Shown here piece after piece: positions 41,087 to 64,000 of a stretch of DNA of 64,000 nt. The number at the start of each line of letters is the position of its first letter. Within the stretch, counting starts at the first letter, position 1. Made by a program: the position numbers and the translations under genes. The notes below the pieces were generated by a model, which was given only the letters and a program-made list of their open reading frames with translations, was not told the origin of the DNA and searched no databases. Location: NCBI GenBank assembly GCA_003159975.1, contig PLPU01000446.1, positions 7,570 to 71,569 on the forward strand, in the 5' to 3' direction. This DNA is from Acidobacteriaceae bacterium. Lineage in GTDB: Bacteria > Acidobacteriota > Terriglobia > Terriglobales > Acidobacteriaceae.

Positions 41087-41107
41087 AAAGAGAGGAGGTC
41101 GATCGTT

Positions 41108-42076: not shown

Positions 42077-42085
42077 AGAGGGCTT

Positions 42086-43000: not shown

Positions 43001-43014
43001 AAGGAGTTGGCAGA

Positions 43015-43284: not shown

Positions 43285-43380
43285 ATGGATAGCACTACGA
43301 TTATCCAAATCGTCGCCGGAGTGTTGTTTGTCATCGTACTGATCATTCTGATTCAGCGCCGCCGAACCAGGGTCAAGTAG
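43285..43380 (+). CDS. 31-aa single-pass membrane micro-protein, copy 2 (MDSTTIIQIVAGVLFVIVLIILIQRRRTRVK)
   Basis: Translated by hand. AAGGGGAG RBS. 29/31 aa identical to copy 1. Confidence 0.85.
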   Translation: MDSTTIIQIVAGVLFVIVLIILIQRRRTRVK

Positions 43381-43710
43381 TACGGGATTTGCAAAAGCGC
43401 CGGAGGAGCCGCGCAGGTGCGCGGTTGCCCTCGGCCAGATTCGATAGTCCCATCTGCCCAAAATGGCTGCCCACTGGCATTGATTGTCTCTGGGAGATGC
43501 TCTCGGCAGGGGAAGTAGGTGGCGTACGCCCTTGCGCGGCCCAACTGGGCACCGCACCGCGGCCTGCATTGGGTATGCATTTTTAAACCCGGCGATCGCC
43601 GTCTGAGATGCTGGTTCGTAGCTTTCACCGGCTGCACCGATGTCGAATTGACAACTGGGATGCCCTCACAACACCCGGTTGCCGGGTAACCGCCGCGGGC
43701 GGGAGGCTTT

Positions 43711-44679: not shown

Positions 44680-44829
44680 ATCTCCCACATTCTCGAGAGT
44701 TTGTACCAAAAGTAACCACAATATCAATCTATGGTAATATGGTGTCATTACGATTGGCGGGTCAATTTGACGCTAACGAGGGATTGTGGAGTCGGACTAT
44801 TCAGTGAACAGTAGATGAAGGGGAACAAT

Positions 44830-45402
44830 ATGTCTGCACGAAATGGTTTTGGGCGACAAGCCAGGATCTCCGCTCAAGGGGGTAAGCCTCCCGCGGACTC
44901 CAAAGGTGTGCGTGTCCAGACCCGGTCGCGAGTGGCCAGGGTCGGCGCTTTCCTTCGCTCCCGCAACGAGGGGCAGGCACTGGTTGAGATCGCCATTGCG
45001 CTCCCGTTGTTGCTGATTCTGCTCACGGGCATTTTCACATTCGGAATCGCGTACATCAATGAAATGACACTGCAAAGTGCCGTGGGGTCGGCGGCGCAGT
45101 TGGTCGCGGTCAGCCGCGGGTCCAGTACAGATCCTTGTGCCACAGCGTATGGGGCGCTGAAGGAAGCGGCGCCGAACTTCAACGCAACAAACTTGGGCGC
45201 CGGCCTGACGGTCACGGTCAATGGGACAGCTTCTACAAAAGGAGAAACCGCCTGCGCCACAGACTTGGGGACCACGTATGGTGCGAGCTCGGGGAAATCC
45301 GTCTCGGTTTCCGCGACCTATCCTTGCACTATCGGTGTTTACGGAAGAAACTTTGCACCAACCTGCCAGCTTGCGGCAACAGTATCGGAGTTGGAGTACT
45401 GA
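44830..45402 (+). CDS. tadE: TadE-family minor pilin
   Basis: Prepilin cleavage motif EG/QALVEIAIALPLLLILLTGI. Start uncertain (44815 or 44830). Confidence 0.85.
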   Translation: MSARNGFGRQARISAQGGKPPADSKGVRVQTRSRVARVGAFLRSRNEGQALVEIAIALPLLLILLTGIFTFGIAYINEMTLQSAVGSAAQLVAVSRGSSTDPCATAYGALKEAAPNFNATNLGAGLTVTVNGTASTKGETACATDLGTTYGASSGKSVSVSATYPCTIGVYGRNFAPTCQLAATVSELEY

Positions 45403-45445
45403 ATCGGAGTTTGAGTACTAACGCAAAACCATCGAGGTCAACGCA

Positions 45446-49206: not shown

Positions 49207-50058
49207 ATGAACCGAAGACTACTTACGATTCTCCTCCTGGCTTTCGTGATTGCCTCGGCATGCGGCTTCCTCGTATGGCGGCTCGTGGGCAAGCAATTGA
49301 ACCAGGCCAAACCGGTGCCCTCCACGAAAGTGGTTGCGGCTGCCACCGACATCAAACTCGGAGCGGTTCTCACTGCGGCTAACCTGTCCACCATCGAGAT
49401 CAACGGAGCGCTGCCCAAGGGCGTTCTGCTTCGGCCGGAAAATGCGATTGGCCGGGGCGTGATCTCCGACATCTATGCGGGCGAGCCGATTAACGAAAAC
49501 CGCCTTGCCGCGGTTGGTTCAGGCGGTGGATTGGCAGCCACCATTCCTCAGGGGATGCGAGCGACCGCAGTCAAGGTCGACGATGTCGTGGGCGTGGCCG
49601 GCTTCGTCACTCCGGGAATGCGCGTGGACGTTCTCATCTCGGGCAATCCCCCGGGAGATCAGGCTCGCAACCTGGAAACCGGCACATTGACCCAGACGCT
49701 GCTGCAAAACATTCAGGTTTTGTCGGCCGGTCAGGATATTCAAAAGGACGCCGAGGGCAAACCGCATCCGGTTCAAGTCGTTAACCTGCTCGTGACGCCG
49801 GAGCAGGCCGAAACGCTGAGCCTGGCGAGCAACCAGACAAAAATCCAGCTTGTGTTGCGGAACCCGCTCGATACCACGATCAACCAGGTTCCCGGTACCG
49901 CCATGGTCAACCTCTTTGCGGGCCAGGCGCCGCCCAAGGTCGTGAAAGTCGCGGCAAAGCCAAAGGTCGTGAAAGCCCCCCCGGCCTTTTCAATCGAAGT
50001 CATTAACGGTAACAAACGGAGTGAAGCAAAATTCGGTACTCCCGGGGGAACGCAGTGA
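49207..50058 (+). CDS. cpaB: Flp pilus assembly protein CpaB/RcpC
   Basis: SAF domain VVAAATDIKLG, IPQGMRA.AVKVDDVVGVAGF..PG.RVDVL, LLQNIQVL, LVTPEQAE.L, LVLRNP.D. Confidence 0.92.
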   Translation: MNRRLLTILLLAFVIASACGFLVWRLVGKQLNQAKPVPSTKVVAAATDIKLGAVLTAANLSTIEINGALPKGVLLRPENAIGRGVISDIYAGEPINENRLAAVGSGGGLAATIPQGMRATAVKVDDVVGVAGFVTPGMRVDVLISGNPPGDQARNLETGTLTQTLLQNIQVLSAGQDIQKDAEGKPHPVQVVNLLVTPEQAETLSLASNQTKIQLVLRNPLDTTINQVPGTAMVNLFAGQAPPKVVKVAAKPKVVKAPPAFSIEVINGNKRSEAKFGTPGGTQ

Positions 50059-51620
50059 GATCGAAAGCTGGAATCAACATCGCTTCTCTCAGCGCATTGT
50101 GTGTTTTCCTCTGCGCTGTGTCGGGCCTGCAGGCTCAAACTTCTCCGGCACTGGCGCCGGCGGCTCAGGCAGGAGCTTCCCTTCAGGACTCGGCGAATGA
50201 GCTTTCAGTTGCCGTTGGAAAAATGGTACTGGTGGATACCGCTCAGCCGATCGCCCGCGTAGCACTTGGGCTGGCTGAGGTGGCCGAAGTTCAAGCGCTC
50301 AACCCGACCGAGGTCATGGTAACCGGCAAGACTGCTGGAGAAACCAGCCTCATTATCTGGGATGTCAAGGGTGGCCGTCAGTTCTTCAATGTGACGGTGC
50401 GGGCGAGTACGACTGGATTGGACGACAGCCTCGAAGGCATTCGCCGCGAACTTAGAGCCGAGCTCCCCGGACAAGCTCTCAAGGTCACCTCCGACAACGG
50501 CATCATCTTCCTGCGCGGCACGGTCAAGAATCTCAATAACTCCGCGCGCGCGGAAAAGATTGCCTCCACGGGCGGAAAAGTTGTCAACCTGCTCAACGTC
50601 GATGTGCCACCGGCAGACCCGCAAATCCTGCTCAAGGTTCGCTTTGAAAGCGTCGACCGCACCAAAGAGACTCAATTGGGCATCAACCTGTTCAGCAGCG
50701 GGTTCGGAAACACGATCGGCGCAGTCACCACCGGCCAATTCTCGCCGCCAGGGCTTAACCTTCCCACAGGAGGTACTTCGGCGGTGGCGCCGACCATTTC
50801 GAATCAGTTGAATCTGTTTGCGTTCTTGCCCGGCCTGAATCTCGGCGCGACCTTGCAGGCCCTTGAGCAGAGACAGTTGGCTGAAGTTCTTGCGCAGCCC
50901 AATATCATTGCCGCGAACGGCAAGGAAGCCAGCTTCCTGGCCGGCGGAGAGTATCCGTATCCGCAGGTTCAGGGCTCTTCTTCCGCGGTCGGCGGAGCAG
51001 TTACCATCCAGTTCAAGGAGTATGGCGTTCGGCTCAATTTCATTCCGACCATTACTCCCCGCGGAACCATCCGGCTTCAGGTAGCCCCGGAAGTCAGCAC
51101 ACTTGACTTCACCAATGGCATCGAGATATCGGGATTCGATGTGCCCGGCATAGACACCCGGAGGGTGAACACCGAGGTCGAATTGGCAGATGGTCAAAGT
51201 TTTGCTATCGGCGGACTGCTGGACGACACCGACAACGAAACCTTCATGAAAATCCCTTTCCTGGGAGATATTCCGATCCTGGGCAAGTTTTTCCAATCGA
51301 TGCAGAAAACCAAGGTCAGCACTGAGCTGATCGTGATTGTGACGCCGGAGATCGTGACGCCCATCGAAGCCGGGGCAACCCTGCCCGAGCCAAAGTACCC
51401 AGGAAAGTTCCTGCCGCCTAACTCCGGCATCCCAATGAACAATCCTGACGCAAAGACCGCCGCTAACACCCCGGCGCCCGCACCGCCATCCCTTCCCGTC
51501 GAGAAGCTGATTGACAGCATGAGACCCGAGAGGCCGTTGATCATTGAAAGTGGTTCTGGAACCTTTGGCGCCTCATCGGGCAGCGGGGCCAGTGCCGCGT
51601 CGAGCGCTCCGCCGCAGTAG
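50055..51620 (+). CDS. cpaC: Tad secretin CpaC/RcpA
   Basis: Signal peptide, GK.AGETSLIIW, BON-like segment, ASFLAGGEYP, KEYGVRL.F.P, IPFLGDIPILGKFF, ELIVIVTP. Confidence 0.92.
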   Translation: MRSKAGINIASLSALCVFLCAVSGLQAQTSPALAPAAQAGASLQDSANELSVAVGKMVLVDTAQPIARVALGLAEVAEVQALNPTEVMVTGKTAGETSLIIWDVKGGRQFFNVTVRASTTGLDDSLEGIRRELRAELPGQALKVTSDNGIIFLRGTVKNLNNSARAEKIASTGGKVVNLLNVDVPPADPQILLKVRFESVDRTKETQLGINLFSSGFGNTIGAVTTGQFSPPGLNLPTGGTSAVAPTISNQLNLFAFLPGLNLGATLQALEQRQLAEVLAQPNIIAANGKEASFLAGGEYPYPQVQGSSSAVGGAVTIQFKEYGVRLNFIPTITPRGTIRLQVAPEVSTLDFTNGIEISGFDVPGIDTRRVNTEVELADGQSFAIGGLLDDTDNETFMKIPFLGDIPILGKFFQSMQKTKVSTELIVIVTPEIVTPIEAGATLPEPKYPGKFLPPNSGIPMNNPDAKTAANTPAPAPPSLPVEKLIDSMRPERPLIIESGSGTFGASSGSGASAASSAPPQ

Positions 51621-51797
51621 GCATAAGCATTCCGGCTGTCTTAACAGGCAGCAGGGCTGCTGTACAGGCAAAAACCTGGAATTCTCGGCTATCTCTTGAA
51701 GGGCGCGTTGTCTGCGCCCTTCAAAGTGTCTCAAGCTAGAAATGATACCCGCCTGAGATTTCCGTTCGAGACAGGCGAGAGGTTTCGAGGCAACCGG

Positions 51798-52265
51798 ATG
51801 AATCCGCTTACCAGGATAAGAACGGCAGTGCGTGATCGCCTTTCTCGGCGCCGCAACATTCCCCCGGAAGTTCGCCTGCGGGTTTCCAATCTCACGCGCC
51901 ACACTATTCTTGCTACATGCATGGAGGTGGCCGATAGCGGCGAAAAACGCAACAAAGGCCTGCTGGGGCGCAAGCATCTCGCTCCCGGAGAGGGTCTGTG
52001 GATCATCCCGTGCGAGTCCGTGCACACTTTCTTCATGCGGTTTCCCATCGACCTTGTCTATCTGGACCGCAAGAAGCAAATCAGGAAGCTCAGGAGCGCC
52101 GTGCCCGCCTGGCGGCTCTCTGCCTGCCTGTCCGCGCACTCCATCCTGGAGCTTCCCGCCGGCACCATCCGCAATACTCACACCGAATGCGGCGATGCAC
52201 TTGAGTTCTCGCCTGTCCCGTTGCCGAATGAGGGCTCAGCGGGCATGGAGACTCGAGCCGAATAG
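51798..52265 (+). CDS. DUF192 family protein
   Basis: VADS...R.KGLLGR..L.PGEGLWI.PCESVHTFFMRFPIDLVYLD...SILELPAG. Start uncertain. Confidence 0.85.
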   Translation: MNPLTRIRTAVRDRLSRRRNIPPEVRLRVSNLTRHTILATCMEVADSGEKRNKGLLGRKHLAPGEGLWIIPCESVHTFFMRFPIDLVYLDRKKQIRKLRSAVPAWRLSACLSAHSILELPAGTIRNTHTECGDALEFSPVPLPNEGSAGMETRAE

Positions 52266-52293: not shown

Positions 52294-53619
52294 CTAGCTC
52301 GTCGCTTGGCTCCGCTCTGGCGGTGAATCGGAAGCGAAACTCCGTGACACATAGACCCACAGATAGAAAACTCCCATGATCAAAAGGATCAGTGGGGCAG
52401 AGAAGATCTGCACATTGATCAGTATCTGCCCGCCAAATCCATTCCCCGGCGGAAACAACTTGTTGATGGCGCCGAGAATCGCTAACCACGAAATATCCCC
52501 GATCAAAACGAATGCCGCTGCGTTCAGAAGAAGTGCGAGCCAGCCGGCAATGCCTCGTTCAGCCCACAGCAGGGCGCAGGCGGGAACCGTGAGAAGCAAG
52601 AGCTTGGCGTCATATTGATGATGATAGATAGGCAGCATGGAGAGAGCTGCAATGGACGCGAGCGCCAGCGCCGCCCGTGCCTGCGACGATCGAGTTTTCA
52701 GAGTGACGAATGCCCATACCAGGATGGGCGGTGCACAGATCAGGTAGGTGACTGGATTGTAGATGCCTGGGTCGTTCCAGAAGGCGCTCACCACCGTTTG
52801 CAGATTAATCATCATGCCCAGGCCGTGCCAGCCCGCTGAAGCTTGTCCGGGGTCGGTGAGTCCGCCGCGTTCCGCAAATGCCAGGATATTGGAGTGAAGC
52901 TCCTCGATCCAATGGGGCGATATCACCCATGTCCACAGTAACCCGGGCAGACTCAGGGCGACTGTCACCATGAGGGTTTGCAGTGCGCGTCTCCGGTAGA
53001 TTCCGCCTGCCAATAAGAAGTAAAGCCAGACCAGGCCCGAATCGTGCGGCTTGATTGCCAGGCTGATCGCAAGGCAGAATATGCCGGCCGCCACATATCG
53101 CTCTCGAAGAAAGCACCAGACGGCAACAACGCAAAGACCGATCGCAACGCCGGCCATATTGCCAAGAACAATCAGTAACTCGCAGTTGGCGAGAAAAAAA
53201 CCAATAAGTGCCCCACAGACCACCGGCGACGAGTCAGCCCCGAGATCCCACATGAGAAAAGCGGCAAGAATCAGTCCGCCCGCGATGAGTCCCATCCACA
53301 ACGTGTGTGCCAGACCCCATGGCAGCATCGCGAAGGGAACCGTGAGAAAGAATGCGGTCGGCAAATACAGATAACGTGCGAAGTGGTTAGCGTGAGTTAC
53401 ATCTCCCGGTCGCGTTCCCCCCTCTGCGCCAGCTACCTGAAGGACCGCGCTTTCGTTATACGGATCGCAATGTTGAATGAGGCACCGCGCGGGATAGTAG
53501 ACGACTCTGAAATCGACCATTGCGACGGAGGAGCCATTCGATAGCACAGAGCCCAGCAATACAAGCACCAGGCTTCCCAGCAAGAAAAGATACAGACCGT
53601 CAAGCCTGGCCTTTTTCAT
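52294..53619 (-). CDS. GT87/DUF2029-like GT-C glycosyltransferase (1)
   Basis: Polytopic. DFRVVYY...DPY...YLYLP..F...P..MLP, LGN, IKPH. Start ATG 53619 has GGAGG and overlaps the upstream gene's end. Confidence 0.8.
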   Translation of the reverse strand: MKKARLDGLYLFLLGSLVLVLLGSVLSNGSSVAMVDFRVVYYPARCLIQHCDPYNESAVLQVAGAEGGTRPGDVTHANHFARYLYLPTAFFLTVPFAMLPWGLAHTLWMGLIAGGLILAAFLMWDLGADSSPVVCGALIGFFLANCELLIVLGNMAGVAIGLCVVAVWCFLRERYVAAGIFCLAISLAIKPHDSGLVWLYFLLAGGIYRRRALQTLMVTVALSLPGLLWTWVISPHWIEELHSNILAFAERGGLTDPGQASAGWHGLGMMINLQTVVSAFWNDPGIYNPVTYLICAPPILVWAFVTLKTRSSQARAALALASIAALSMLPIYHHQYDAKLLLLTVPACALLWAERGIAGWLALLLNAAAFVLIGDISWLAILGAINKLFPPGNGFGGQILINVQIFSAPLILLIMGVFYLWVYVSRSFASDSPPERSQATS

Positions 53620-54925
53620 CTTTAGCCTCCCTGCGCGATGCATAAACCCACAGATAGAAAGCACTCATGATCAGCAGTATGGTTGGGGCAGGGAACACCA
53701 CGATGGCCGTCAGCACCCACCCTGACAGCCACGGCGTGGTCGGGCGCAGGTGGCTGATCACGCCGAAGACAAGCGCCCAGGGAAGATCTCCGGTAAGCAC
53801 GAATGCCGCGGCATTCACCAGGAGCGCGAGCCGCCCAAGCATGCGGCCTTCAGACCACAGCATGGCGCAAGCGGGAACCGTGAGCAGCAGAAGCTTGGAA
53901 TCGTAAATCCGATGATAGACAGGCAGCATGGAGATCGCTGCGATTGCCGCGAGCGCCAGCCAGGCTCTCTCCGGCGAGAAGCGCGACCGCAGCGTGACCA
54001 CAATCCAAACCAGGATCGGCGCTCCGCCGATCAGGTAAGACACTGGGTTGTAGAAGCTCGCATCGTCTCTGAAAAGGCTGACGACCGTTTGCAGGCTGAT
54101 CACCATGCCAAGGGTATGAGCGCCCATCGATGAGGGTCCAGGGTCGTTCAAATCGCCGCGCGCCGAGGTTGCAGCCAGATTGGAGTGCAGTTCCTGCATC
54201 CAATGCGGCGCTACCTGCGACACCCACAGAACGGCCAGCAGGCTCAGGACCGCGGCGAGTCCGAGAGATTTGAGCGCACTCTTTCGGTATGCGCCTCCAG
54301 CCAGCAGGAAATAAAGCCAGACGAGTCCCCCGTCATGAGGCTTGAAGGCCAGGCTGATTGCGAGGCACACCACGCCGACCGCAACAAAACGATTCTTGAT
54401 GAAGCACCAGACGGCAATCAGGCAAAGGCTGATCACAATTCCCGCCGCGTTGCCGATAATCACCAGCACTTCGCTGTTGGCCAGAACAAACGCGATCAAG
54501 ACGCCTGCGACCGCCGGCGCATAGTCGGCCCCGAGGTCCCACATCAGGAACGAGGCAAACATCAGGCTTCCAGCCATGAGGATCATCCACACCACATAGG
54601 CGTGGCCCCACGACAGAATGGCAAGGGGAGCAACAAGGAAAAGCGCTGTCGGCAGATTGATACAGACGACGATTGCCCTGCGCGCCGATCGGGCAAGGAT
54701 CGGGTCCGATGGGAATTGCCCTCCGTCGGCCTCATACATGCGGAGGATTTCTCCATCCTGGTAAGGATTGCTATGTTGAAGAACGCAGCGCGCCCCGTAA
54801 TAGATTGCCTTGAAATCCGACATCGGCGCCGGGTTACCCCTCTCAAGAATGGCGCCAAGCATGAGAAAAATCATGCCTCCCAAAAGCAGCAGATAAAGAC
54901 CGTCGAGCCGCGCTTTTGTCATCAC
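53600..54925 (-). CDS. GT87/DUF2029-like GT-C glycosyltransferase (2)
   Basis: DFKAIYY...NPY...NLP...P.A.L, IGN, FKPH, YDSKLLLL. Close paralog of (1). Confidence 0.8.
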   Translation of the reverse strand: MMTKARLDGLYLLLLGGMIFLMLGAILERGNPAPMSDFKAIYYGARCVLQHSNPYQDGEILRMYEADGGQFPSDPILARSARRAIVVCINLPTALFLVAPLAILSWGHAYVVWMILMAGSLMFASFLMWDLGADYAPAVAGVLIAFVLANSEVLVIIGNAAGIVISLCLIAVWCFIKNRFVAVGVVCLAISLAFKPHDGGLVWLYFLLAGGAYRKSALKSLGLAAVLSLLAVLWVSQVAPHWMQELHSNLAATSARGDLNDPGPSSMGAHTLGMVISLQTVVSLFRDDASFYNPVSYLIGGAPILVWIVVTLRSRFSPERAWLALAAIAAISMLPVYHRIYDSKLLLLTVPACAMLWSEGRMLGRLALLVNAAAFVLTGDLPWALVFGVISHLRPTTPWLSGWVLTAIVVFPAPTILLIMSAFYLWVYASRREAKDEKGQA

Positions 54926-55122
54926 GATCCTCTCTGCTTTCTTCCGATGCCGCTGCGGCTGTTCAATCGGCCGCCGGCTCGCACGCGAGAAGGCTGCTCC
55001 GGTCGTTTGGCCCGTATAGAATCCAACCGGATAAGCGAGCTGATTCCGCTGCGGGAGTTATGCATTTCTAACACTCTAGACGAAGGTCGCGGGATGGTCC
55101 AATGCGGGCAGGCGGCCGGCTG

Positions 55123-56346
55123 CTATGGAAGCACCGGGGCAGTAACTGCCGCGTGCTTTTCAGGCTCCTCCGCGCTTGTTTTCTTGAATCCGATTGCGAG
55201 CAGATACCACGCCAGCCAGGCTGCCGCGGTCCAAAGAAACTGGGCCGAGTGTATCTTGACGCCGCAGATCAATTCAGCCTCCACCACGATACTGGAAAGC
55301 GCGAGAATCACCAGCAGCGTGCGGGACCGTGTACGATATGCGCCATCGAGCAAGCCGGGTATGACCAGCCCCTGGTCGTAAAGAAAACAATACGGCGCCG
55401 CGAAGATCGAAACCACCATCAGCATCCCGCCCTCATTCAACCAGTCCCAGCGGTGGCGGCGGCGCCAGTAATAGATCAGCGCCCACGAGCAGGCCAAAGC
55501 CGGCGCCACGTACTGAATCCACATCGTCTTCTCGCTGATCCAGAACCGCAGCACAATACTGAGGCAGGGAATGAATTCCGCCTCGACTCCCACCGTGCGG
55601 ATCATATGCATGTATTGGCTGAATGCCATTGGGTCAATGCAATAGACGAGCGCGCAACTCGCGGCCATGGCAACGACGGTACCTGCCAGCAGCTTGTAGC
55701 TCCTGGTCACAACGATCCACGCCAGCAGGACAACGCCGAAGGGCAGAAACAGGTGAGGCTTCAGCATGCACAGCCAAAGCGAGGCGCCGGCCAGAAAGGG
55801 ACGCGCGCGATGCAGTCGCAGAAACAGCACGAACCCCAGGAGGGGAAAAAGGGAAGTCTGGCCCATCATCAGGCACAGAAGCGCCGGTCCGAACGAAAGC
55901 CCAAGCCAGTGCAACTGGTTTGCGGGCCGTCCATGCATAATCCAGAGCAAATGCACCGAGTACAGCAGGCAGCCGAGCAGAACGAGGGACCAAAGCAGCG
56001 TCGCCAGGCGCAGCGGCAGGAACCCCAACGGCATGGCGAGTGGCAGGCTCCACGGCGGGTTGCGCATGAAGCCCACTGTGTATGCATCGGGAAGCCCCGC
56101 GCCATGCTCGATCCGCGTCATGGCCTCTGCGTCAAAGGGATTGGCGTGATGAACAAGCTGCTGGCCGGTCGCCCAATACACAACAAAATCGCGCGCCCCT
56201 GAAATGTGGTTTGTCAGCGGCGCAGCGCAAATAAATATCGAGACCAACGCAAGCGCCAGCCCGCTTACCAGGGCGATCGCCATTTCAACAATATCGGGGT
56301 TTGCCTTCGCTGCGGGAATCCCCGCTCCGCTTGCCATGAACGACAT
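55123..56346 (-). CDS. GT87/DUF2029-like GT-C glycosyltransferase (3)
   Basis: DFVVYW.TG...NPF...RNPPW...PLGFLP, MGQ, LKPHL, PY..LYD. Start uncertain. Confidence 0.8.
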   Translation of the reverse strand: MSFMASGAGIPAAKANPDIVEMAIALVSGLALALVSIFICAAPLTNHISGARDFVVYWATGQQLVHHANPFDAEAMTRIEHGAGLPDAYTVGFMRNPPWSLPLAMPLGFLPLRLATLLWSLVLLGCLLYSVHLLWIMHGRPANQLHWLGLSFGPALLCLMMGQTSLFPLLGFVLFLRLHRARPFLAGASLWLCMLKPHLFLPFGVVLLAWIVVTRSYKLLAGTVVAMAASCALVYCIDPMAFSQYMHMIRTVGVEAEFIPCLSIVLRFWISEKTMWIQYVAPALACSWALIYYWRRRHRWDWLNEGGMLMVVSIFAAPYCFLYDQGLVIPGLLDGAYRTRSRTLLVILALSSIVVEAELICGVKIHSAQFLWTAAAWLAWYLLAIGFKKTSAEEPEKHAAVTAPVLP

Positions 56347-56421
56347 TCTACCCTGCTGTATGGACACTGGTGCGTTTCTTCTCCATGCTCAAGCGCGGCG
56401 CGGAGTTCGCTCCGCTACCTG

Positions 56422-57753
56422 TCACCGAGCCTCCAACATCGCTGGTGCTCGGTTCATTCGATACAGAAGATAGAGCTGCGCAAATCCAAGAACCGCCAGC
56501 GCGAGCGACAGCAATTGAATTCCATGCTTCATCGCGATCGGAAGAGTCACCCACGATGCCGCAAAAATCAAGAAGGACATGAACGCTGTCCAGCGCGTGC
56601 CAGCGCTCCAATGCATTTCCTTCACCGCGCCGAGAGTCAGTACCACGGCGACCGCAACCAGGATGGAGTCATACATCGGGACATAGACATTCAAGAGCAG
56701 GGTCCAGGTAAGTGTTGCAGCCCAGGCCAGAGTTTGTTGGGGTCCGCCGCCTCTGGCAGACTTCCACAGCAGCACGGCAAGCCCTCCCGCAATGATCGTG
56801 ACTACGGCGATCATCAAGGCCACACCCAACCCGGACCGGCCGCCGTCAACCGCCTGCAGGCATGAGCCGATGTCGATGAACTTCCAGAGTTGAACAGTCC
56901 TTTGGCCCTCAAGGCCGGCCACTCGGCCGAACAAGGCGAGGAACCGCGAGTAGACTTGCCAGATCTGGATTCCACCGAAACCCGTTGACACCAATGCGAG
57001 GGCGGCGATGCCGGTCATGAACCCGGCCAGCGTGCGAAATCTGCGCGTCAGCAGCAGCATGGGAACAAACAGCAGCAGCAGTGTCGGCTTATACGCCAGC
57101 ATTGAGAGCGCCAAACCGCTCAGCATCAGTCTGGAATGCCTCTCCAGATAAATGGCAATCCCCACCGAACAAACTGCGATGGCGCTCAGTTGACCATTCA
57201 CGAAGATGCCCCAGAAAAACGGATAGAACGCCAAAGACAGGCAGAGGATCAACGAGACTTTAATCCTATCTCCGGACCAGGCGCCTCTCGCAGCGGCGGT
57301 AATCCCCACCATGTAGAGAATCAACGAGCAGGCAGTCCAAAGGAAGAAAGCCACGCGAAATGAAACCCGCGCAAAGAGACTGAAGAACAGGCCCACGAAT
57401 GGCGGATATGGGCTGGGCCCGTAAACATAGCTGGGAGCGGAGTAAATCGCGTTGAATGTCTTTTGTTGCAGGCCGTAATCGTAGAGACTTGCGGCTGGAT
57501 AGTCCTTCACAATATGACCGATTCCATAGAAATAGACGAAGTCATTCGGCTGCAGGGGGATTGAAATTATTCCGGCTTTGAACTGAATCCAGACTGGAAT
57601 GCAAAATCGCGTAAGGAATATGGCTCCTGCCAAAACCCAGCAGGCCAGGTTGATCTCCTTCAGCCCAGGCATCGGACCGAGGATTTTGCCGAACCATACC
57701 GAAAATGACTTACTCCCGCGTCCCGCCTCAGCCGGTCGATTCCCGCTGTCCAT
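56422..57753 (-). CDS. GT87/DUF2029-like GT-C glycosyltransferase (4)
   Basis: NDFVYFY...LYD...PYPPF, NGQ, YKP, YD. ATG 57753 has a GAGGAG RBS. Confidence 0.8.
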   Translation of the reverse strand: MDSGNRPAEAGRGSKSFSVWFGKILGPMPGLKEINLACWVLAGAIFLTRFCIPVWIQFKAGIISIPLQPNDFVYFYGIGHIVKDYPAASLYDYGLQQKTFNAIYSAPSYVYGPSPYPPFVGLFFSLFARVSFRVAFFLWTACSLILYMVGITAAARGAWSGDRIKVSLILCLSLAFYPFFWGIFVNGQLSAIAVCSVGIAIYLERHSRLMLSGLALSMLAYKPTLLLLFVPMLLLTRRFRTLAGFMTGIAALALVSTGFGGIQIWQVYSRFLALFGRVAGLEGQRTVQLWKFIDIGSCLQAVDGGRSGLGVALMIAVVTIIAGGLAVLLWKSARGGGPQQTLAWAATLTWTLLLNVYVPMYDSILVAVAVVLTLGAVKEMHWSAGTRWTAFMSFLIFAASWVTLPIAMKHGIQLLSLALAVLGFAQLYLLYRMNRAPAMLEAR

Positions 57754-58166
57754 GCCATCTCCTCGATCGCGGCCATCCGCTGATCGGGCTCCCGATTCAA
57801 TATGCTGAGTTGAAGGAAACTTGTCTAGGTACACAATACATGAACAACTGACTGCGTCAAGATTTGCCGCATGGAACCATTGAAAATAAACCTCAAGTTG
57901 CTTGCAGCCTTCAACTCCACTTATACGTCAAAGCAAATGGACTTACTAACTGCCAAATCAACCGGTGTCGATCCGAACCGGCTGCAGAGATTCCGCTATC
58001 CCGCCATCCCACTTTTGCGCCACGGTAATACACTTTTCGGTCATGTATACGAGCCCGGTCTTCCCACCGCATGCTGTATACAAATGTTTACACCCCACTC
58101 GGCCGCACTTTATTGTTGATTCCGCCAAGTTATTGAGTTATAAGAAGAAATGTCCAGCTTCCAGAT

Positions 58167-58182
58167 TGGCACACCACTTGCT
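58167..58182 (+). promoter_or_regulatory. Sigma54 -24/-12 promoter of flp
   Basis: TGGCACACCACTTGCT, 55 nt upstream of the flp ATG. Confidence 0.8.
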
Positions 58183-58236
58183 GTATTGAGGGTGTTCCGG
58201 TCTATAGCCGGAAAAAATCAACCTAGGGAGATTCAA

Positions 58237-58431
58237 ATGAACAATCTGCTTCTGAAGATGTATGTTAAGTTCCAGGACCTGGCGAGCCGTGAAGAAGGTC
58301 AGGATCTCGTGGAATATGCGTTGGTCGTTGCTCTCATCGCTTTCGGCGCAGTTGCCGGCATGAACGCTCTGGCCAAGGGCCTCAACACCGCCTTCAACAC
58401 CATCAGCACCACGCTGTCCACCTCGGTCTAG
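58237..58431 (+). CDS. flp: Flp major pilin 1
   Basis: MNNLL...REEG/QDLVEYALVVALIA Flp motif. AGGGAG RBS. Start is ATG 58237. Confidence 0.92.
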   Translation: MNNLLLKMYVKFQDLASREEGQDLVEYALVVALIAFGAVAGMNALAKGLNTAFNTISTTLSTSV

Positions 58432-58433
58432 TC

Positions 58434-58453
58434 CTTGCCGGGTGACCGGCAAG
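58434..58453 (+). terminator. Stem-loop after flp1 (mRNA-stabilising or attenuating)
   Basis: CTTGCCGG-GTGA-CCGGCAAG with no U-tract. Confidence 0.5.
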
Positions 58454-58570
58454 CGAACTATGTCCCCTAACTTCGCGCCTTGTGGGAGAGCTCGACGTCC
58501 ACCCCAGCATCGGGACGTACTCTCCCCAGCAAGGGTCGACTCCCAGCAATAGATTTGTTGAGGCAGCCCG

Positions 58571-58768
58571 ATGCGGCCTGAATACCTGAAACTTCTCCTT
58601 TGCCTGCGCCGCCTGATTACACTCGACCACGGGCAAGATCTGGTCGAATACGCACTGGTTGTCGCTTTGATCGCATTCGCTGCGACCGCCAGCATGAAAG
58701 CCTTAGCCACCGGTATTAGCACCGCGTTCGACACGTTGAGCGTCGAGCTTCATAACAACGCGATCTAA
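58571..58768 (+). CDS. flp: Flp pilin 2
   Basis: DHG/QDLVEYALVVALIAF Flp motif. GAGG RBS. Confidence 0.88.
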   Translation: MRPEYLKLLLCLRRLITLDHGQDLVEYALVVALIAFAATASMKALATGISTAFDTLSVELHNNAI

Positions 58769-58957
58769 ACCCTGGCAAGGCAGGCCTTCGTTGTCAAACT
58801 CTTCACCATCGTTTCTCGCGGGAGAGCTATGCTGGGCAAGCCAATTGCCGACGCAAGCTCTCCCCTTCCTTTAGACCCGCATATAATTGCCGTCCATGTT
58901 TTCCCCTCGGCACTGGCTTGTGTTCCGGGAAATCAAGGTTTGAGAGTGAAGCAGAGC

Positions 58958-60337
58958 ATGACAACCCCTCGCAGGACTAGTCTGGCTCTGTTCCTCTTTT
59001 GTTGCGGGATATCTATTTGGTGGGGTTTGGCGCTCTCTACGCGCGCCGCTGACGGGTCGTCCGGCTTTCAAGCCGTCTATTACGGGACGCGATGCCTCCT
59101 GCAAAGTCAGAACCCATACAAGCAAACCGAATTGGAGAAGGTTTACCGCGCGGAAGGCGGGGCGTATTCATCCCAGTCACACGCTGTCCACGAGTCGGTG
59201 ACCTTGTATGTCAATCTGCCCACCACATTTATCTTCCTGCTCCCTTTCGCGCTTTTGCCCTATGGCGCCGCGCATGCGCTTTGGATGATTCTGCTCGCCG
59301 CGCTCTTTACCCTCGCCGCTTTTCTGGCTTGGAATCTTGGAGCTGGCTATGCGCCACGCGTTTCCCTCTTTCTCGTTTGTATCCTGGTTGCCAACGCGGA
59401 AATCATCTTCAGCAGCGGCAATACCGCGGGCATTGTTGTGAGCCTCTGCGTGGTAGCCGCGTGGTGCCTCCTCAAGAACAGGTTTGTGCCGGCGGGCATT
59501 CTTTGCCTGGGAATCGGCCTCGCCATCAAGCCCCATGACGTGGGCCTCGTTTGGCTCTATTTCCTTCTCGCGGGTGAAATGCTTCGCAAGCGTGCTCTTC
59601 AATCCCTTCTGATTCCCGTTTTTTTCGGCCTGGCAGCCTTTCTGTGGGTCTCTCATGTCGCGCCGCATTGGATTGAGGACTGGCGTTCCAATCTCTCTGC
59701 CATTTCGGCGCCGGGCGGCATCAATCAACCCGGCCCTCATTCCCTGACCAGCCGATCTCCCGACATGATCGTCGATCTCCAGGCAGCTGTGAGCGTCTTC
59801 AAAGACGATCCGCGCCTCTACAATCCGGTCAGCTATCTGGTCTGTGGAGCGCTCCTTCTCCTGTGGGCCGTTCGCTCGTTCAGAGCGCGCTTCTCGCACC
59901 AGGGAGCACTGCTCGCGTTGGCGGCTGTCATTCCTCTTACCATTCTTGTCACCTATCATCGTGCATACGACGCGAAACTTCTCCTTCTCACCATCCCCGC
60001 CTGTGCAATGTTGTGGAGCGCGGGTGGCCGGATCGCGCGTATTGCGCTCCTGGTGACGACCGCGGCGATTCTATTGACTGCGGATATTCCATTGGCGATT
60101 CTGGTCGTGCTCGCTGCTAAACTGCATGTGGGAACAGACGGTGTCTTCGGAAAGATTCTGACTGTGTCAATCTTGCGGCCCGCCCCGATCGCATTGTTTG
60201 CAATGGCTATCTTCTATCTGTGGGCGTATCTGCGGTTTCCCGGGCCGGACACGCTGAGATGTTATCGAGAACCCGATGCCATGGTTGAAACAGCCGGACC
60301 GGCAACGAGCAATTCCTTACCGCTGCGCCCAGCCTGA
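58958..60337 (+). CDS. GT87/DUF2029-like GT-C glycosyltransferase (5)
   Basis: GFQAVYYG.RC...NPY...YVNLP, SGN, IKPHD, YDAKLLLL. Paralog of (1) and (2). Start uncertain. Confidence 0.78.
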   Translation: MTTPRRTSLALFLFCCGISIWWGLALSTRAADGSSGFQAVYYGTRCLLQSQNPYKQTELEKVYRAEGGAYSSQSHAVHESVTLYVNLPTTFIFLLPFALLPYGAAHALWMILLAALFTLAAFLAWNLGAGYAPRVSLFLVCILVANAEIIFSSGNTAGIVVSLCVVAAWCLLKNRFVPAGILCLGIGLAIKPHDVGLVWLYFLLAGEMLRKRALQSLLIPVFFGLAAFLWVSHVAPHWIEDWRSNLSAISAPGGINQPGPHSLTSRSPDMIVDLQAAVSVFKDDPRLYNPVSYLVCGALLLLWAVRSFRARFSHQGALLALAAVIPLTILVTYHRAYDAKLLLLTIPACAMLWSAGGRIARIALLVTTAAILLTADIPLAILVVLAAKLHVGTDGVFGKILTVSILRPAPIALFAMAIFYLWAYLRFPGPDTLRCYREPDAMVETAGPATSNSLPLRPA

Positions 60338-60411
60338 ACCTTCACCCTCCGCCTCGCAGTGATTGATCTGCAAGCCAGCTATCGAACCAAACGCACTCGG
60401 AAGGCGTGTTC

Positions 60412-61200
60412 ATGATTAACGGAAAACGAATTGCGGTTGTGATGCCCGCCTACAACGCCGAAAAGACTCTGGAAATGACCGTTCAGGAGTTGTCCGACGT
60501 CGTCGACATCAAAATCCTCGTCGACGATTCGAGCAAGGATCAGACCGCGACCCTCTCAAGAAAGCTTGGCGTATTGACCTTTGTCCACGACGCCAATTAC
60601 GGTTATGGGCGCAATCAGCAGACCTGCTATCGCGAGGCCCTGGCCGCCGGTGCCGACATCGTCGTGATGGTGCATCCTGACTACCAATACACGCCATTGC
60701 TGGTTCCGGCTATGGCCGGCATGGTGGCCAGCGGCGTTTATGACATGGTCCTCGGCTCCCGCATTCTCGGAAGAGGCGCGCTCAGAGGCGGCATGCCCCT
60801 CTATAAGTACATCGCCAACCGCTTCCTCACCGCATTTCAGAACCTGTTTCTGGGAGTGAAGCTGTCGGAGTATCACACCGGGTTTCGCGCCTTCTCGCGC
60901 GAGTTGCTCAAGACTCTCCCCCTGCTCGAAAACTCCGACGATTTTGTCTTCGATAACCAGATGATCGCCCAGGCCGTTATGTTCGGCTTCAACATCGGAG
61001 AGATATCCTGCCCGACGAAATACTTTAAAGAAGCCTCGTCGATCAACTTCAAGCGAAGTGTCGAATACGGTTTAGGAGTGCTGGCCACCACAGGCAGCTT
61101 TGTTGCGCATAAGTGGGGAATCATTCACGTAAGAAGATTCCATGCCAGCGGAAGAAAAGTAACTCAGGAGCCTGACGCCCGAACCGAGCATGGTTCCTGA
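60412..61200 (+). CDS. GT2 glycosyltransferase, DPM1/polyprenol-phosphate sugar synthase-like
   Basis: [44 protein letters not shown]. Confidence 0.85.
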
Positions 61201-61227
61201 GGAATTCGATTTGCATCAAGCAAGGGC

Positions 61228-63429
61228 ATGTTGACTCTGGTTTCGCTCTGGGAGGTCAGGATTCTGAACGCGGGCTCGATCACCACGCAGCAAATCATCG
61301 GCAGCCTCCTGGCCATCCTCGCCTTTCTGCCGGCAAGCCTGTGCACAGGCTACCTCGCTGCCTGGTTTACCAATCTTCACGGATTCCGGCGACGCTCGAT
61401 CGTGGAGCGTGTCTTCTGGAGTGTGCCGCTGTCCATGGCCGTCTCCACCATCGCCGCCGTGCTGATCGGCAGGTTTCTCTCGCTCACTGCCGTCGTCGCA
61501 TTCTTCGTTGCCACGACTGTGCTCTGGCTGGTCGTAGTCGGCAGGGAAGCTCTCCATCTGCGGCGTTCCCGCGGGAAATGGAATATCGGCTGGAATCCGT
61601 TGGGCGGCGCGGCGTCCGTGCTGGCAGTCCTCTGGATTGTCGTTGCGGTTCTCTCGCTCGTCGATCTTCAAGGCAACCACAAGCTATTCATGAACACCGC
61701 CATGCTCGATCAGAGCTATCGCGTCAACTGGACCCAGGATGTCCTGCGAACCGGCGTTCCACCCGTCAATCCGCAATACTTCTACAAGCATTCCGCCCCC
61801 ATGCGCAATTACTACTTCTGGTATGTCGTCTGTGCCGCGGTAGCTAAAAGGTCGCATCTCTCCGTGCGTGTTGTTTTCATAGCCAGCACTGTCTGGGCGG
61901 GGTTTGTCCTTGCCGCTCTGATCGGCCTCTACTTGAAACACCTCCTCGAGGTCGGAGCCCGATTGCGCAAGCAGTTTCTCCGTGCCATCGCATTGCTCAT
62001 GGTCACCGGCCTTGATCTCTGCGTCGCACTCTGGGGAGTTTTCTACTCTCATCGGGCGCCGACTGGCGATCTCGAAGCATGGTCAAAGGATGCCATCGTC
62101 AGTTGGCTTCATACCCTTCTATGGGCCCCGCATCATGTCGTGGCCATGGTGTGCTGCATGTTCGCATTTCTGCTGGCTTGGATGGGCGGCAGGGACGGCG
62201 AGCACAACCGTATCGTAACCATCCTCTTGATTGCCGTTTCGCTGGCCAGCGCCTTTGGTCTCTCGATTTATGTAACCTTTGCCTTCTTCCTGGTGATGCT
62301 GTTCTGGGCGCTGTGGCAGATCGCCATTGAACGCACTCCTCGACCTGTAATGCTGCTCGCGGCCGGCGGCGCGGGCTCCATTGTCCTGCTCCTCCCTTAC
62401 TTGGCGGACCTGATGCAACCCGCATCGCAGCAGGTGGAAGGTGGCTCCGGTTCGCTGTTCTCGTTCGCCGTTCGCGAAATGATTCCCCCTGGCGGCCTGT
62501 TGGCGACACCCTTCTTTCAGCACATTGCCGAGAGCCATTCCCTTGCCGCGCTTAACCTTGCCAAGCTGATTCTTCTGGTGCCGGGTTATGCCCTCGAACT
62601 GGGATTCTATTTCGCCGTCTTCCTCATCTACCTTGTTCCCGCCTGGCGCGGACGCACCCCCCTCAGCCCCGCGCATCGCGCGCTTCTCTTCATCTGCGCC
62701 GCCACGCTCCCCATCATCTCCCTGATCCGCTCAGGGATTCTAAATACCAACGACTTCGGCTGGAGAGGAGCCCTGCTGGTGCAGTTTCCCTTGCTCCTTC
62801 TGGCGTCCGAGGTCGTCACGGGTTGGAAAATCGCAGACAGCAAAACCAGTGCGCCTGCTGACTTGGCCGGCCTGCCTCACAACACCCCGCAATGGTTGCG
62901 ATCGATAGCCGCTCTCGCGCTGGTGATCGGCGCAATGGGCACATTTTGCCAGGCGCTGATGCTGCGCTTCGGTGTCCCATTTGTCGAGTGGCAAATGACC
63001 GTGGCCCACACGTCTGAGAAGCGCAGCTTCTCGCACAACGCATACATCTCGTCTCTCGGCTACGCCCAACTGGACTCGCTGATTCCCAACGATGCCATCG
63101 TGCAATTCAATCCCAGGCACGAAGATCCGTTCTGGACCGCTGCGGATTTGCTCGGGGTCGACCATCAGGTGGCCATCCTGCACGACGGCATGGGGTGTGG
63201 CTCTGAATTGGGGGGCGATTCCAGCGGTTGCAAAGCGATGGCTGCCGACATCGGTGCGCTCTTCCACGGCGCATCCGCGGATCAGGCACGCTCAACATGC
63301 CGCAAATACGCTATCCAGTACCTCGTCGTCCGCAACTTCGATCCCGCGTGGGACGATAAAGCCGGCTGGGTGTGGACCCTGAACCCCGTCGTTGCTGATA
63401 AAGATTTTCGAGCTCTCGATTGCCGCTGA
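61228..63429 (+). CDS. Large polytopic membrane protein, possibly GT-C fold
   Basis: More than 12 hydrophobic segments. First large loop carries D...R...GVPPVNP.F...YY.WY. Soluble C-terminal domain ending KYAIQYLVV. Confidence 0.6.
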   Translation: MLTLVSLWEVRILNAGSITTQQIIGSLLAILAFLPASLCTGYLAAWFTNLHGFRRRSIVERVFWSVPLSMAVSTIAAVLIGRFLSLTAVVAFFVATTVLWLVVVGREALHLRRSRGKWNIGWNPLGGAASVLAVLWIVVAVLSLVDLQGNHKLFMNTAMLDQSYRVNWTQDVLRTGVPPVNPQYFYKHSAPMRNYYFWYVVCAAVAKRSHLSVRVVFIASTVWAGFVLAALIGLYLKHLLEVGARLRKQFLRAIALLMVTGLDLCVALWGVFYSHRAPTGDLEAWSKDAIVSWLHTLLWAPHHVVAMVCCMFAFLLAWMGGRDGEHNRIVTILLIAVSLASAFGLSIYVTFAFFLVMLFWALWQIAIERTPRPVMLLAAGGAGSIVLLLPYLADLMQPASQQVEGGSGSLFSFAVREMIPPGGLLATPFFQHIAESHSLAALNLAKLILLVPGYALELGFYFAVFLIYLVPAWRGRTPLSPAHRALLFICAATLPIISLIRSGILNTNDFGWRGALLVQFPLLLLASEVVTGWKIADSKTSAPADLAGLPHNTPQWLRSIAALALVIGAMGTFCQALMLRFGVPFVEWQMTVAHTSEKRSFSHNAYISSLGYAQLDSLIPNDAIVQFNPRHEDPFWTAADLLGVDHQVAILHDGMGCGSELGGDSSGCKAMAADIGALFHGASADQARSTCRKYAIQYLVVRNFDPAWDDKAGWVWTLNPVVADKDFRALDCR

Positions 63430-63586
63430 CAGGAATGGCGTCGTATTACGCCAGTAATCGCGAGCATGCCGGCTTCTTCGGCATGCCAGGCGTTCAGGAT
63501 GATCCACCATTCAAGAATGTTAGAATTCGAGCCAATCTGTGCAGGGGAACCCACAGAACGAGCCGTCGAAAGCGAAGGTCCCGTTG

Positions 63587-64000
63587 ATGCCCACCAGCCT
63601 GCCCGTCACCGGCAACACCGAACGCACGATGCCCGAAAATCGTGCCTTTTATCCCGCGCTTGACGGTCTCCGCGCCATCGCATTCCTCATGGTGTTCTTT
63701 CAGCACTACTACTCCATCCCGTGGGGTTGGACGGGTGTAAACATCTTCTTTGTCCTCTCCGGCTTTCTGATTACCGGCATCCTCTTCGACTCCCGTAACG
63801 ATGCTCACCGTGCCCGCAACTTTTATATCCGCCGCACGCTGCGCATCTTTCCCCTCTATTACGGTGTCTTCTTCGCAATCCTCCTGCTTGAGCCGATCTT
63901 TCATTGGCGCTGGTCTCTTGACTGGCTCGCGTGGCCGCTCTATTTCGCCAACTACCTTCGCTTCGTTTCCCCCGATTTCATGTCAGTCGGGACCCCGTTG
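63587..64000 (+). CDS. Acyltransferase family 3 (OafA-like O-acyltransferase), 3'-truncated by window edge
   Basis: Hand translation (not in the ORF track): YPALDGLRAIAFLMVFFQH...GVNIFFVLSGFLITGIL...FYIRRTLRIFPLYY. Confidence 0.88.
   Translation, partial: MPTSLPVTGNTERTMPENRAFYPALDGLRAIAFLMVFFQHYYSIPWGWTGVNIFFVLSGFLITGILFDSRNDAHRARNFYIRRTLRIFPLYYGVFFAILLLEPIFHWRWSLDWLAWPLYFANYLRFVSPDFMSVGTPL

Follow-up and report, generated by a model that had tools for sequence, protein, structure and literature searches.

Candidate pilin O-glycosylation genes embedded in a Tad pilus locus of a peat acidobacterium

Background

Glycosylation of a pilin by a membrane enzyme encoded next to the pilin gene is known from Pseudomonas aeruginosa group IV, in which TfpW, a glycosyltransferase of the GT-C class encoded beside pilA, glycosylates the type IVa pilin (bioRxiv 10.1101/2020.04.19.049825). 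Here we analyse a stretch of 64 kb (contig C440:7570-71569; the whole stretch is called the window below) from the metagenome-assembled genome of a peat acidobacterium, 5.74 Mb in size and 76% complete, whose closest database relatives carry the labels Terracidiphilus, Acidobacteriaceae or Terriglobales. The window contains a complete locus for a tight adherence (Tad, type IVc) pilus, in which the two Flp pilin genes stand among five genes of glycosyltransferase family 87 (GT87), followed by a family 2 glycosyltransferase (GT2), a 733-aa polytopic protein with the GT-C fold and an acyltransferase of the AT3 family. Judging from this gene context, we regard it as about an even call that the Tad locus has a built-in periplasmic module which would O-glycosylate the Flp pilin in a TfpW-like manner.

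The TfpW system of the Pseudomonas aeruginosa/paraeruginosa group IV consists of pilA-tfpW-tfpX together with D-Araf donor genes and a GtrA-like component, and arabinosylates the pilin. Its polyprenol-phosphate monosaccharide donor is synthesized in the cytoplasm and used in the periplasm, and Ser/Thr residues of the pilin are modified at several sites, in only some lineages (bioRxiv 10.1101/2020.04.19.049825). The locus studied here resembles that system in having a GT-C membrane glycosyltransferase gene directly beside the pilin gene, and a donor of the corresponding kind is proposed for it. Unlike the type IVa pilin with its globular head, however, the candidate acceptor is the 43-aa, all-helical Flp of type IVc. 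In Pseudomonas the work falls to one multifunctional enzyme, TfpW, reported to have a motif in common with Emb proteins, whereas five GT87 proteins and a distantly DUF2298-like GT-C protein are encoded here, and neither DprE1/2-type donor genes nor a GtrA gene are present in the locus. Glycosylation by pilin-linked GT-C enzymes is already known from TfpW, and the present case would involve another enzyme family and another class of pilus.

Generally, GT-C enzymes act on the extracytoplasmic face of the membrane with polyprenol-phosphate-linked donors, and the characterised GT87 enzymes, PimE and its relatives, act on lipid-linked glycans. The GT87 proteins of the window are comparable with PimE, the polyprenol-phosphate-mannose-dependent mannosyltransferase of Mycobacteriales, in that all five pass the Pfam GT87 model and one of them (GT87_4) reaches a template modelling (TM) score of 0.63-0.69; four of the five also have a conserved Asp in the region of the first periplasmic loop, which may correspond to the catalytic Asp of PimE. 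They differ in having no sequence-level match to the PimE chains of the PDB, in belonging to a Gram-negative acidobacterium with no phosphatidylinositol mannoside, lipomannan or lipoarabinomannan (PIM/LM/LAM) pathway context seen in the locus, and in surrounding pilin genes, with a protein as the proposed acceptor. As for the 733-aa protein, it shares with STT3/AglB/PglB and with ArnT a GT-C fold with a C-terminal periplasmic domain, and with STT3 and ArnT the acidic residues conserved after the helix aligned to the first transmembrane helix (TM1); it has no sequence similarity to any of these enzymes and no WWD(Y)G motif, and the pilins of the window have no sequon.

Among Tad pilins themselves, Flp1 of Aggregatibacter actinomycetemcomitans is described as glycosylated, with a mass increasing from about 5.1 to 6.2-6.5 kDa (PMC6182317, citing earlier work); no responsible enzyme is named there. 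What is new in the present analysis is the GT-C fold of the 733-aa protein, the PimE-like fold of GT87_4, the genome-exclusive clustering of these genes, their conserved linkage to flp, and the sigma-54 promoter.

Results

The glycosyltransferase block lies inside a Tad locus

The gene identities, folds, conserved linkage, promoter motif and bridging RNA contigs presented below are observations on the window and its relatives. The features of the block are as follows.

52294..53664, reverse strand: GT87_1, GT-C glycosyltransferase of the PimE family, close paralogue of GT87_2 and GT87_5 (PF09594, 34.1 bits; DF-motif Asp present)
53600..54925, reverse strand: GT87_2 (PF09594, 30.8 bits; DF-motif Asp present)
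55123..56367, reverse strand: GT87_3, a distinct subfamily, 21% identical to GT87_4 (PF09594, 48.2 bits)
56422..57834, reverse strand: GT87_4, the paralogue kept beside flp across species, candidate pilin-proximal transferase (PF09594, 64.6 bits)
58237..58431, forward strand: flp1, encoding a 64-aa Flp prepilin made up of a leader of 21 aa, the cleavage motif G/QDLVEY and a mature pilin of 43 aa that ends in NTISTTLSTSV (PF04964, 33.7 bits, cut-off 32.2)
58571..58768, forward strand: flp2, the other prepilin gene, encoding 65 aa (PF04964, 22.7 bits, short of the 32.2 cut-off; same G/QDLVEYAL processing motif)
58829..60337, forward strand: GT87_5, paralogue of GT87_1 and GT87_2 (PF09594, 38.6 bits; DF-motif Asp replaced by Gly)
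60406..61200, forward strand: GT2 (GT-A fold), about 262 aa, with no obvious membrane helix, candidate polyprenol-phosphate sugar synthase (PF00535 Glycos_transf_2, 58.8 bits)
61228..63429, forward strand: 733-aa polytopic protein with the GT-C fold, of an uncurated family, distantly like DUF2298/'YYY' (AlphaFold2 (AF2), Foldseek, VIA-align)
63539..64000, forward strand: start of an AT3 acyltransferase, 425 aa in full, running off the window (PF01757 Acyl_transf_3, 78.6 bits over the full length)

A first-pass annotation of this DNA had called four reverse-strand GT87 genes, two flp genes, a fifth GT87, a GT2, a 733-aa protein and an AT3, and all of these calls hold on rescoring with Pfam, flp2 scoring below the cut-off and the 733-aa protein giving no match. 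It had also described the flp genes as flanked by GT87 genes, which is correct and can now be made more precise, since the Tad locus is complete and contains the GT87 block instead of adjoining it. According to Pfam, this locus spans 37.9-52.3 kb, directly upstream of the GT87 block, with the gene order cpaA, cpaE, cpaF, tadB, tadC, PilZ, tadE, tadG, rcpC, secretin, DUF192, GT87 genes, flp. Its remaining features are the following.

37914..47287, forward strand: Tad assembly genes cpaA (prepilin peptidase), cpaE/tadZ, cpaF/tadA (ATPase), tadB, tadC, PilZ, tadE and tadG (Pfam Peptidase_A24, AAA_31/CbiA, T2SSE, T2SSF twice, PilZ, TadE, Tad/Tad_C)
49207..52265, forward strand: rcpC/cpaB, the secretin gene rcpA/cpaC and DUF192, bordering the GT87 block on the left (Pfam RcpC, Secretin, DUF192)

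The cognate machinery for Flp is accordingly found at the locus itself, including prepilin peptidase, TadA ATPase, TadB/C, RcpC, secretin and pseudopilins. The order rcpC-secretin-DUF192 at the left border is kept in relatives, and a 492-aa protein of no assigned family is encoded on the opposite strand between tadG and rcpC. Because flp1 and flp2, the only flp genes of this Tad locus, sit amid the glycosyltransferase genes, the GT87 block is placed within the locus, between secretin-DUF192 and the pilins.

On the genome level, the five GT87 genes of the window are the only matches to the Pfam HMM (hidden Markov model) in the assembly, and no second copy of the GT2 or of the 733-aa gene is found in it by tblastn. 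Five further flp genes are present elsewhere, all without a GT87 neighbour; three of them belong to another Tad locus, of classical type (C438), and two are orphans. The second Tad locus, of which C113 is a near-duplicate, has three flp genes followed by cpaA, rcpC, secretin, cpaE and cpaF, and is without GT87. The orphan genes (C130:14678-14869 and C341:21300-21491) are flp1-like, 77-80% identical to flp1, and have the same NTISTTLSTSV-type tail.

Linkage of GT87, flp and GT2 across Acidobacteriota

A synteny survey had been proposed together with the first-pass annotation, and our surveys, all made within Acidobacteriota, find flp, GT87 and GT2 linked again in many Acidobacteriaceae and also in Bryobacteraceae. 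On four metagenome contigs carrying GT87_4 homologues of 52-70% identity, the homologue is in every case divergent from one to three flp genes, and in every case there are further GT87 or 430-620-aa membrane proteins and then the 262-aa GT2. The species survey comprises 59 loci from representative genomes of Terracidiphilus, other Acidobacteriaceae, Silvibacterium, Bryobacteraceae and Terriglobia. In 33 of these loci an flp gene and the GT87_4 homologue are no more than 4 kb apart, and the count is 27 of 47 when only loci with at least 4 kb on both sides are considered. Among the 33 linked loci, GT2 follows flp in 22-24, the 733-aa family is present in 11 and Tad genes in 29, while the 21 loci without flp have GT2 in one and the 733-aa family in none. 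GT2 therefore goes with flp (24/33) and not with GT87_4 alone (1/21).

Two layouts are seen, one divergent (GT2 < flp < | GT87_4 >) and the other co-directional (GT87_4 > flp > GT2 > 733-aa), and some minimal modules hold GT87_4, flp and GT2 only. In locus L026 the flp-GT87_4-GT2 module stands without any Tad machinery within 10 kb. In the tree of GT87_4 homologues, the deep branches (Bryobacteraceae, Terriglobia) are linked to flp and three well-supported clades are unlinked, with at least seven changes of label. In genomes G007, G009 and G018, whose GT87_4 homologue is solitary or was not detected, flp is flanked by other GT87 paralogues. Among the three congeners drawn blind from the phylum search, whose tally is 151 genomes including one unpublished (G063, which supports none of the claims made here), the only GT87 gene of G071 adjoins flp, as do three of six in G147 and all three in G020. 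On the whole, a GT-C gene stands beside the pilin gene and is kept there across carriers, which is the arrangement that marks a TfpW-type system.

An unselected sample of the family, with one genome per genus, was surveyed as well. Here 16 of 60 genomes have flp, and GT87 lies within 1.5 kb at 3 of about 21 flp loci, a fourth locus having GT2. By our estimate chance adjacency of flp and GT87 would be roughly 0.3%, so the linkage is patchy, yet above the estimated chance.

Even close relatives differ in their glycosyltransferase content. The number of GT87 genes varies from one to about seven, and AT3/SGNH, present at the window locus, is not detected in a relative that is 85-92% identical (L033). 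Such differences in the number and identity of GT-C genes are as expected for a strain-variable surface glycan. The same variability, together with the origin of most survey loci from one family, by which they are not independent, would also fit a locus without any functional link, i.e. a recombination or insertion hot spot on the flp side that gathers variable envelope-glycan genes, the linkage being shared ancestry. We consider this explanation improbable, as the linkage is found in Bryobacteraceae and in an unclassified Terriglobia genome besides Acidobacteriaceae, is retained in two opposite gene orders, and involves different GT87 paralogues taking the flp-adjacent position in different genomes.

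GT87_4 has a PimE-like fold

The gathering cut-off of the Pfam GT87 model (PF09594) is 25 bits, and all five open reading frames (ORFs) pass it with 30.8-64.6 bits; no NCBIfam model matches any of the GT87 proteins. GT87_1, GT87_2 and GT87_5 are mutually 45-55% identical, while GT87_4 shares 21-25% identity with the other four paralogues. The true start of GT87_4 is likely Met28 (57753), which would give 443 aa, the length of the database homologues.

GT87_4 is the sole paralogue that was folded. Its AF2 model (pLDDT 74.9, pTM 0.79) has the PimE structures 9dm5/9dm7 as top Foldseek matches, with an E-value of 3e-4 and TM scores of 0.56-0.69, followed by PIGU, GPI mannosyltransferase I, ALG6 and ALG3. 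Sequence searches of the PDB with the GT87_4 profile and with a profile of the five paralogues return nothing meaningful and no alignment to PimE chains. The earlier GT87/GT-C assignment, for which an HMM and structure check had been suggested, is thus borne out by the Pfam scores of all five proteins and by the PimE-like fold of GT87_4.

In the loop after the first helices, the Asp of a DF motif is shared by GT87_1 to GT87_4 and conserved in 94 of the 98 GT87 ORFs from related loci; it is a candidate counterpart of the catalytic Asp of PimE. GT87_5 has Gly at this position and may be inactive, or altered in function. The same Gly occurs in L032 and L064, and the closest relative, L033, keeps Asp. 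As a separate observation, the GT87_4 homologue beside flp in one congener (L017, G001:C6:85019-86286) is split over three frames, perhaps as a pseudogene or through assembly frameshifts.

The 733-aa protein is a further GT-C protein

The ORF of the 733-aa polytopic protein stands as first called, and its GT-C fold is newly recognised here by AF2, Foldseek and VIA-align. No match is found in Pfam, NCBIfam or the PDB by sequence, even when the family profile is used for the PDB search; the family itself comprises 960 representative homologues at E-values up to 0.001. The AF2 model has a pLDDT of 92.2 and a pTM of 0.94 and shows the GT-C fold. Foldseek ranks STT3, AglB, AftA, DPY19 and ArnT at the top with E-values of about 1e-6. 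VIA-align gives Z scores of 16.9 for STT3, 16.7 for AglB, 16.4 for ArnT and 11.4 for PglB, and the matches to STT3, AglB and ArnT span about 450-460 residues. The first 49 VIA-align matches are all of the GT-C fold, being glycosyltransferases and the PIGU subunit of the GPI transamidase, after which Z falls to 3.4. After the helix aligned with TM1 of STT3 and ArnT come three residues conserved in the family, D146 (in at least 90%), D161 (invariant) and R165. The structural matches hardly extend into an additional N-terminal segment of about 115 residues.

The named family closest to the protein among predicted structures is 'YYY'/DUF2298, itself uncharacterised, with an Atlas TM score of 0.72 over 629 residues. 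The DUF2298 HMM (PF10060) does not match the protein of the window, and one of 45 family members reaches an E-value of 0.008. Modelled in this way, the protein appears as a distant structural relative of DUF2298/'YYY' and not as a member. It is thus a candidate additional periplasmic glycosyltransferase, which would be the sixth GT-C enzyme of the locus.

Because STT3 and ArnT tie for the top scores, the fold is compatible with a protein or a lipid acceptor. This bears on the possibility that the enzymes glycosylate other Tad components, or periplasmic and outer-membrane proteins more broadly (TadE/TadG pseudopilins, the secretin, the 492-aa protein), and not the major pilin. The protein-acceptor enzymes STT3, AglB and DPY19 are among the closest folds of the 733-aa protein, but the lipid-acceptor ArnT scores much like STT3 (16.4 against 16.9); the block lies inside the Tad locus beside secretin-DUF192, but it is flp and not the machinery that remains adjacent in all layouts. 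In addition, neither a WWD motif in the enzyme nor an N-x-S/T sequon in flp1 and flp2 is present, and we hold such acceptors to be very improbable.

Two roles of the 733-aa protein were discarded. With the family present in only 11 of the 33 linked loci, it is an accessory and not a conserved initiating enzyme. N-glycosylation of the oligosaccharyltransferase type was discarded for this window, since WWDYG-type motifs (WW[DE], W.D.G) are absent from the protein and sequons from both pilins.

The Flp pilins and their tails

Both pilins have a typical prepilin motif, EEG/QDLVEYAL or HG/QDLVEYAL, and mature peptides of 43-44 aa. The C-termini quoted in the first-pass annotation are right as letters, though flp2 continues beyond the quoted end, to ...TLSVELHNNAI. 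The Ser/Thr-rich tails pointed out there are no evidence of glycosylation, since they are equally frequent in Flp paralogues without a GT87 neighbour. Tails as rich are found in the GT87-less flp genes of C438, C130, C341, L039 and L072, and the tail was discarded as a sign of glycosylation.

Pilins of the clade that has the co-directional order GT87_4 > flp > GT2 (> 733-aa) carry an N-x-S/T sequon at their extreme C-terminal end (...SNIT, ...ANVT, ...SNIS, ...TNVS), as observed in loci L060, L061, L063, L069, L074, L075, L077, L078, L080, L081 and L083. A predicted complex of GT87_4 with Flp has a score of 0.00, which gives no verdict and speaks neither for nor against binding.

Sigma-54 promoters and representation in RNA

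Three regulatory features were located in the window.

37488..37502, forward strand: perfect sigma-54 -24/-12 element TGGCAC-N5-TTGC upstream of the cpaA/Tad operon, one of two perfect matches in 64 kb
58167..58181, forward strand: perfect sigma-54 element ending 56 nt before the flp1 ATG, the second of the two perfect matches
58429..58460, forward strand: stable hairpin without a T-run that overlaps the stop codon of flp1 (-18.4 kcal/mol, z -4.83, 0/200 shuffles as stable)

Shuffled sequence gives a mean of 0.32 perfect sigma-54 matches, against two in the window. Of 26 related loci (range L027-L081), 21 have the element, allowing one mismatch at most, 70-79 nt before the flp gene nearest to GT87, and a sigma-54 activator gene is located at 35438-36850 on the reverse strand. 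From these motifs, the Tad pilus of this organism looks sigma-54 dependent. The hairpin is possibly an attenuator or an mRNA stabiliser; no intrinsic terminator is found in 57700-59100.

RNA contigs were available from four peat or permafrost libraries (X1, X2, X3 and X6), each of a different study. Contig depth is a coarse measure which cannot rank genes strictly, and bins without cover carry no meaning. The flp contigs (58015-58816) have depths of 137-5515, which is 10 to 1000 times those of the neighbours, and 137-3900 over flp1; contigs over the glycosyltransferase genes reach about 0-35. In three runs, contigs bridge flp1 and flp2, and in two runs from two studies they extend from flp2 into GT87_5 (58622-59439 and 58622-59243, with depths of 502 and 400). 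The RNA contigs thus show only a very high representation of the pilins and some read-through into GT87_5, and the genes 3' of flp2 probably receive attenuated read-through. Loose contig ends at 58415 point to related flp copies with other downstream sequence.

GT2, AT3 and the end of the contig

The GT2 has a VDDSS motif. Its best NCBIfam models are those for dolichyl-phosphate hexose transferase, PpgS and AglJ, at 52-56 bits and far below their cut-offs of 325-375, and in the PDB it matches GpgS and DPMS equally (5e-5). The former designation 'DPM1-like' follows from these polyprenyl- and dolichyl-phosphate sugar synthase models and is weaker than first put, at 55 bits against cut-offs of 370-375. 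By these matches, the GT2 is a plausible donor synthase. It is 85-92% identical among congeners (G001, G007, G009, G010, G024), and GT87_4 is only 37-51% identical in the congeners with a distant homologue (G001, G009, G010). Conservation of this degree points to a general-purpose donor synthase. The GT2 of G009 does not adjoin flp.

The contig continues for 3.4 kb past the end of the window. An SGNH/GDSL gene (PF13472, 82.9 bits) follows AT3 after 19 nt, and AT3 with SGNH/GDSL is the usual pair for O-acetylation, which agrees with the O-acylation proposed earlier for the AT3. Directly after this pair, at L001:2173-3925, are convergent genes for a CDP-glucose 4,6-dehydratase (TIGR02622, 411 bits) and a glucose-1-phosphate cytidylyltransferase (TIGR02623, 440 bits). 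Both matches are above the equivalog cut-offs and belong to a CDP-deoxyhexose pathway, and the contig ends there; the same pair also lies beside the module in the close relative L033. No flippase gene is found in the locus, and three GtrA-like genes are present elsewhere in the genome.

Discussion

Pilin or envelope glycan as the acceptor

Several findings weigh against glycosylation of the pilin by this module. We know of no GT87 enzyme that uses a protein acceptor. In the species survey, 21 of 59 GT87_4 homologues, forming three clades, have no flp within 10 kb, and the three such loci that were inspected (L044, L047, L053) lie in unrelated contexts. Distant homologues of the 733-aa protein are likewise found in unrelated contexts, the four at 28-35% identity being on short contigs or in contexts without flp, GT87 and GT2. 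Most flp loci of the family, and most of those outside this genus, have no adjacent GT87. The Ser/Thr-rich tails are general to Flp and not specific to GT87-linked pilins, and the RNA contigs over the glycosyltransferase genes, at depths of about 1-35, are indistinguishable from DNA carry-over. No Flp match is obtained in eight Acidobacteriota genomes of other genera which have GT87 arrays, where Flp is short and the HMM may miss divergent copies. GT87 arrays therefore have other uses, and GT87 as a family dedicated to pilins was discarded. Finally, the Tad pilus of Caulobacter shows no extra density (PMC10710030), so that glycosylation is not general to Tad pili; with Flp1 of A. actinomycetemcomitans reported as glycosylated, this fits an accessory, lineage-specific trait.

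Part of these findings would be explained if the GT-C array, the GT2 and the AT3/SGNH pair make or modify an envelope glycoconjugate of non-protein type, for instance a lipoglycan, a glycolipid or side chains of lipopolysaccharide (LPS) or exopolysaccharide, which is merely co-located and co-regulated with Tad pili in an adhesion programme, the pilin not being the acceptor. The acceptors of known GT87 enzymes are lipid-linked glycans, with PimE the best fold match of GT87_4, and AT3-SGNH with the CDP-glucose dehydratase and cytidylyltransferase is typical of O-antigen-type pathways; yet the locus has no initiating phosphoglycosyltransferase, no Wzx/Wzy, and no synthase or export gene. The GT2 is conserved far above its neighbours, as for a general donor synthase, but the minimal modules hold only this gene besides GT87_4 and flp. 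While GT87 arrays occur in the eight genomes in which no flp is detected, and 21 GT87_4 homologues are solitary, the linkage follows the pilin gene itself, also where no Tad machinery is nearby (L026), and outlasts the inversion of GT87_4 relative to flp. We therefore regard a non-protein acceptor as unlikely, although it deserves the most attention among the alternatives.

The pilus-glycosylation pathway of the first-pass annotation is strengthened by the GT-C folds and by synteny, and has lost the tails as an argument. The accessory status of the 733-aa protein, the missing Asp of GT87_5 and the GT87 arrays without flp weaken it, and the pilin as acceptor is read from the gene context. Periplasmic O-glycosylation of Flp nevertheless seems the simplest account of the locus, the smallest set of genes conserved being a candidate donor synthase, a single GT87 and the pilin.

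A possible pathway of pilin glycosylation

The Flp prepilin resides in the inner membrane, its C-terminal segment facing the periplasm, and this segment is exposed on the filament; a structure of the Caulobacter pilus is given in PMC10710030. For the donor, the acceptor, the order of the steps and the biological role, we infer the following. The soluble GT2 would attach a hexose-type sugar to polyprenol phosphate on the cytoplasmic side of the membrane, and the lipid-linked sugar would then be flipped. With flp1 driven by what may be its own sigma-54 promoter, the prepilin would present its Ser/Thr-rich C-terminal segment to the periplasm, a segment which would be surface-exposed in the filament. 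GT87_4 would transfer the first sugar or sugars from the lipid donor to this segment, the other GT87 paralogues and the 733-aa GT-C enzyme may extend or branch the glycan, and the AT3 and SGNH pair may O-acetylate it.

Conclusions

Tad pili are widespread organelles of adhesion and colonisation. Glycosylation of the A. actinomycetemcomitans Flp1 has long been reported, and the papers searched name no enzyme for it; nor was any paper found in the literature linking GT87, DUF2029 or GT-C enzymes to Flp pilins. That GT87 GT-C enzymes act here as protein O-glycosyltransferases on the 43-aa Flp, as the first identified machinery for glycosylating Tad pili and with strain-specific pilus glycans as the outcome, is a tentative proposal, which we think possible but would not yet favour. 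If it is true, it would provide a genetic handle on Tad pilin modification, extend the acceptor range of the PimE family to proteins, and give a function to an uncurated family of 700-aa GT-C proteins. If RNA depth reflects transcription, the pilus is made in nature, in peat and permafrost. A dedicated glycosylation module would also explain the variable glycosyltransferase islands in the Tad loci of abundant peat and soil Acidobacteriota, where strain-specific pilus glycans could serve, for example, against pilus-specific phages or peat proteases.

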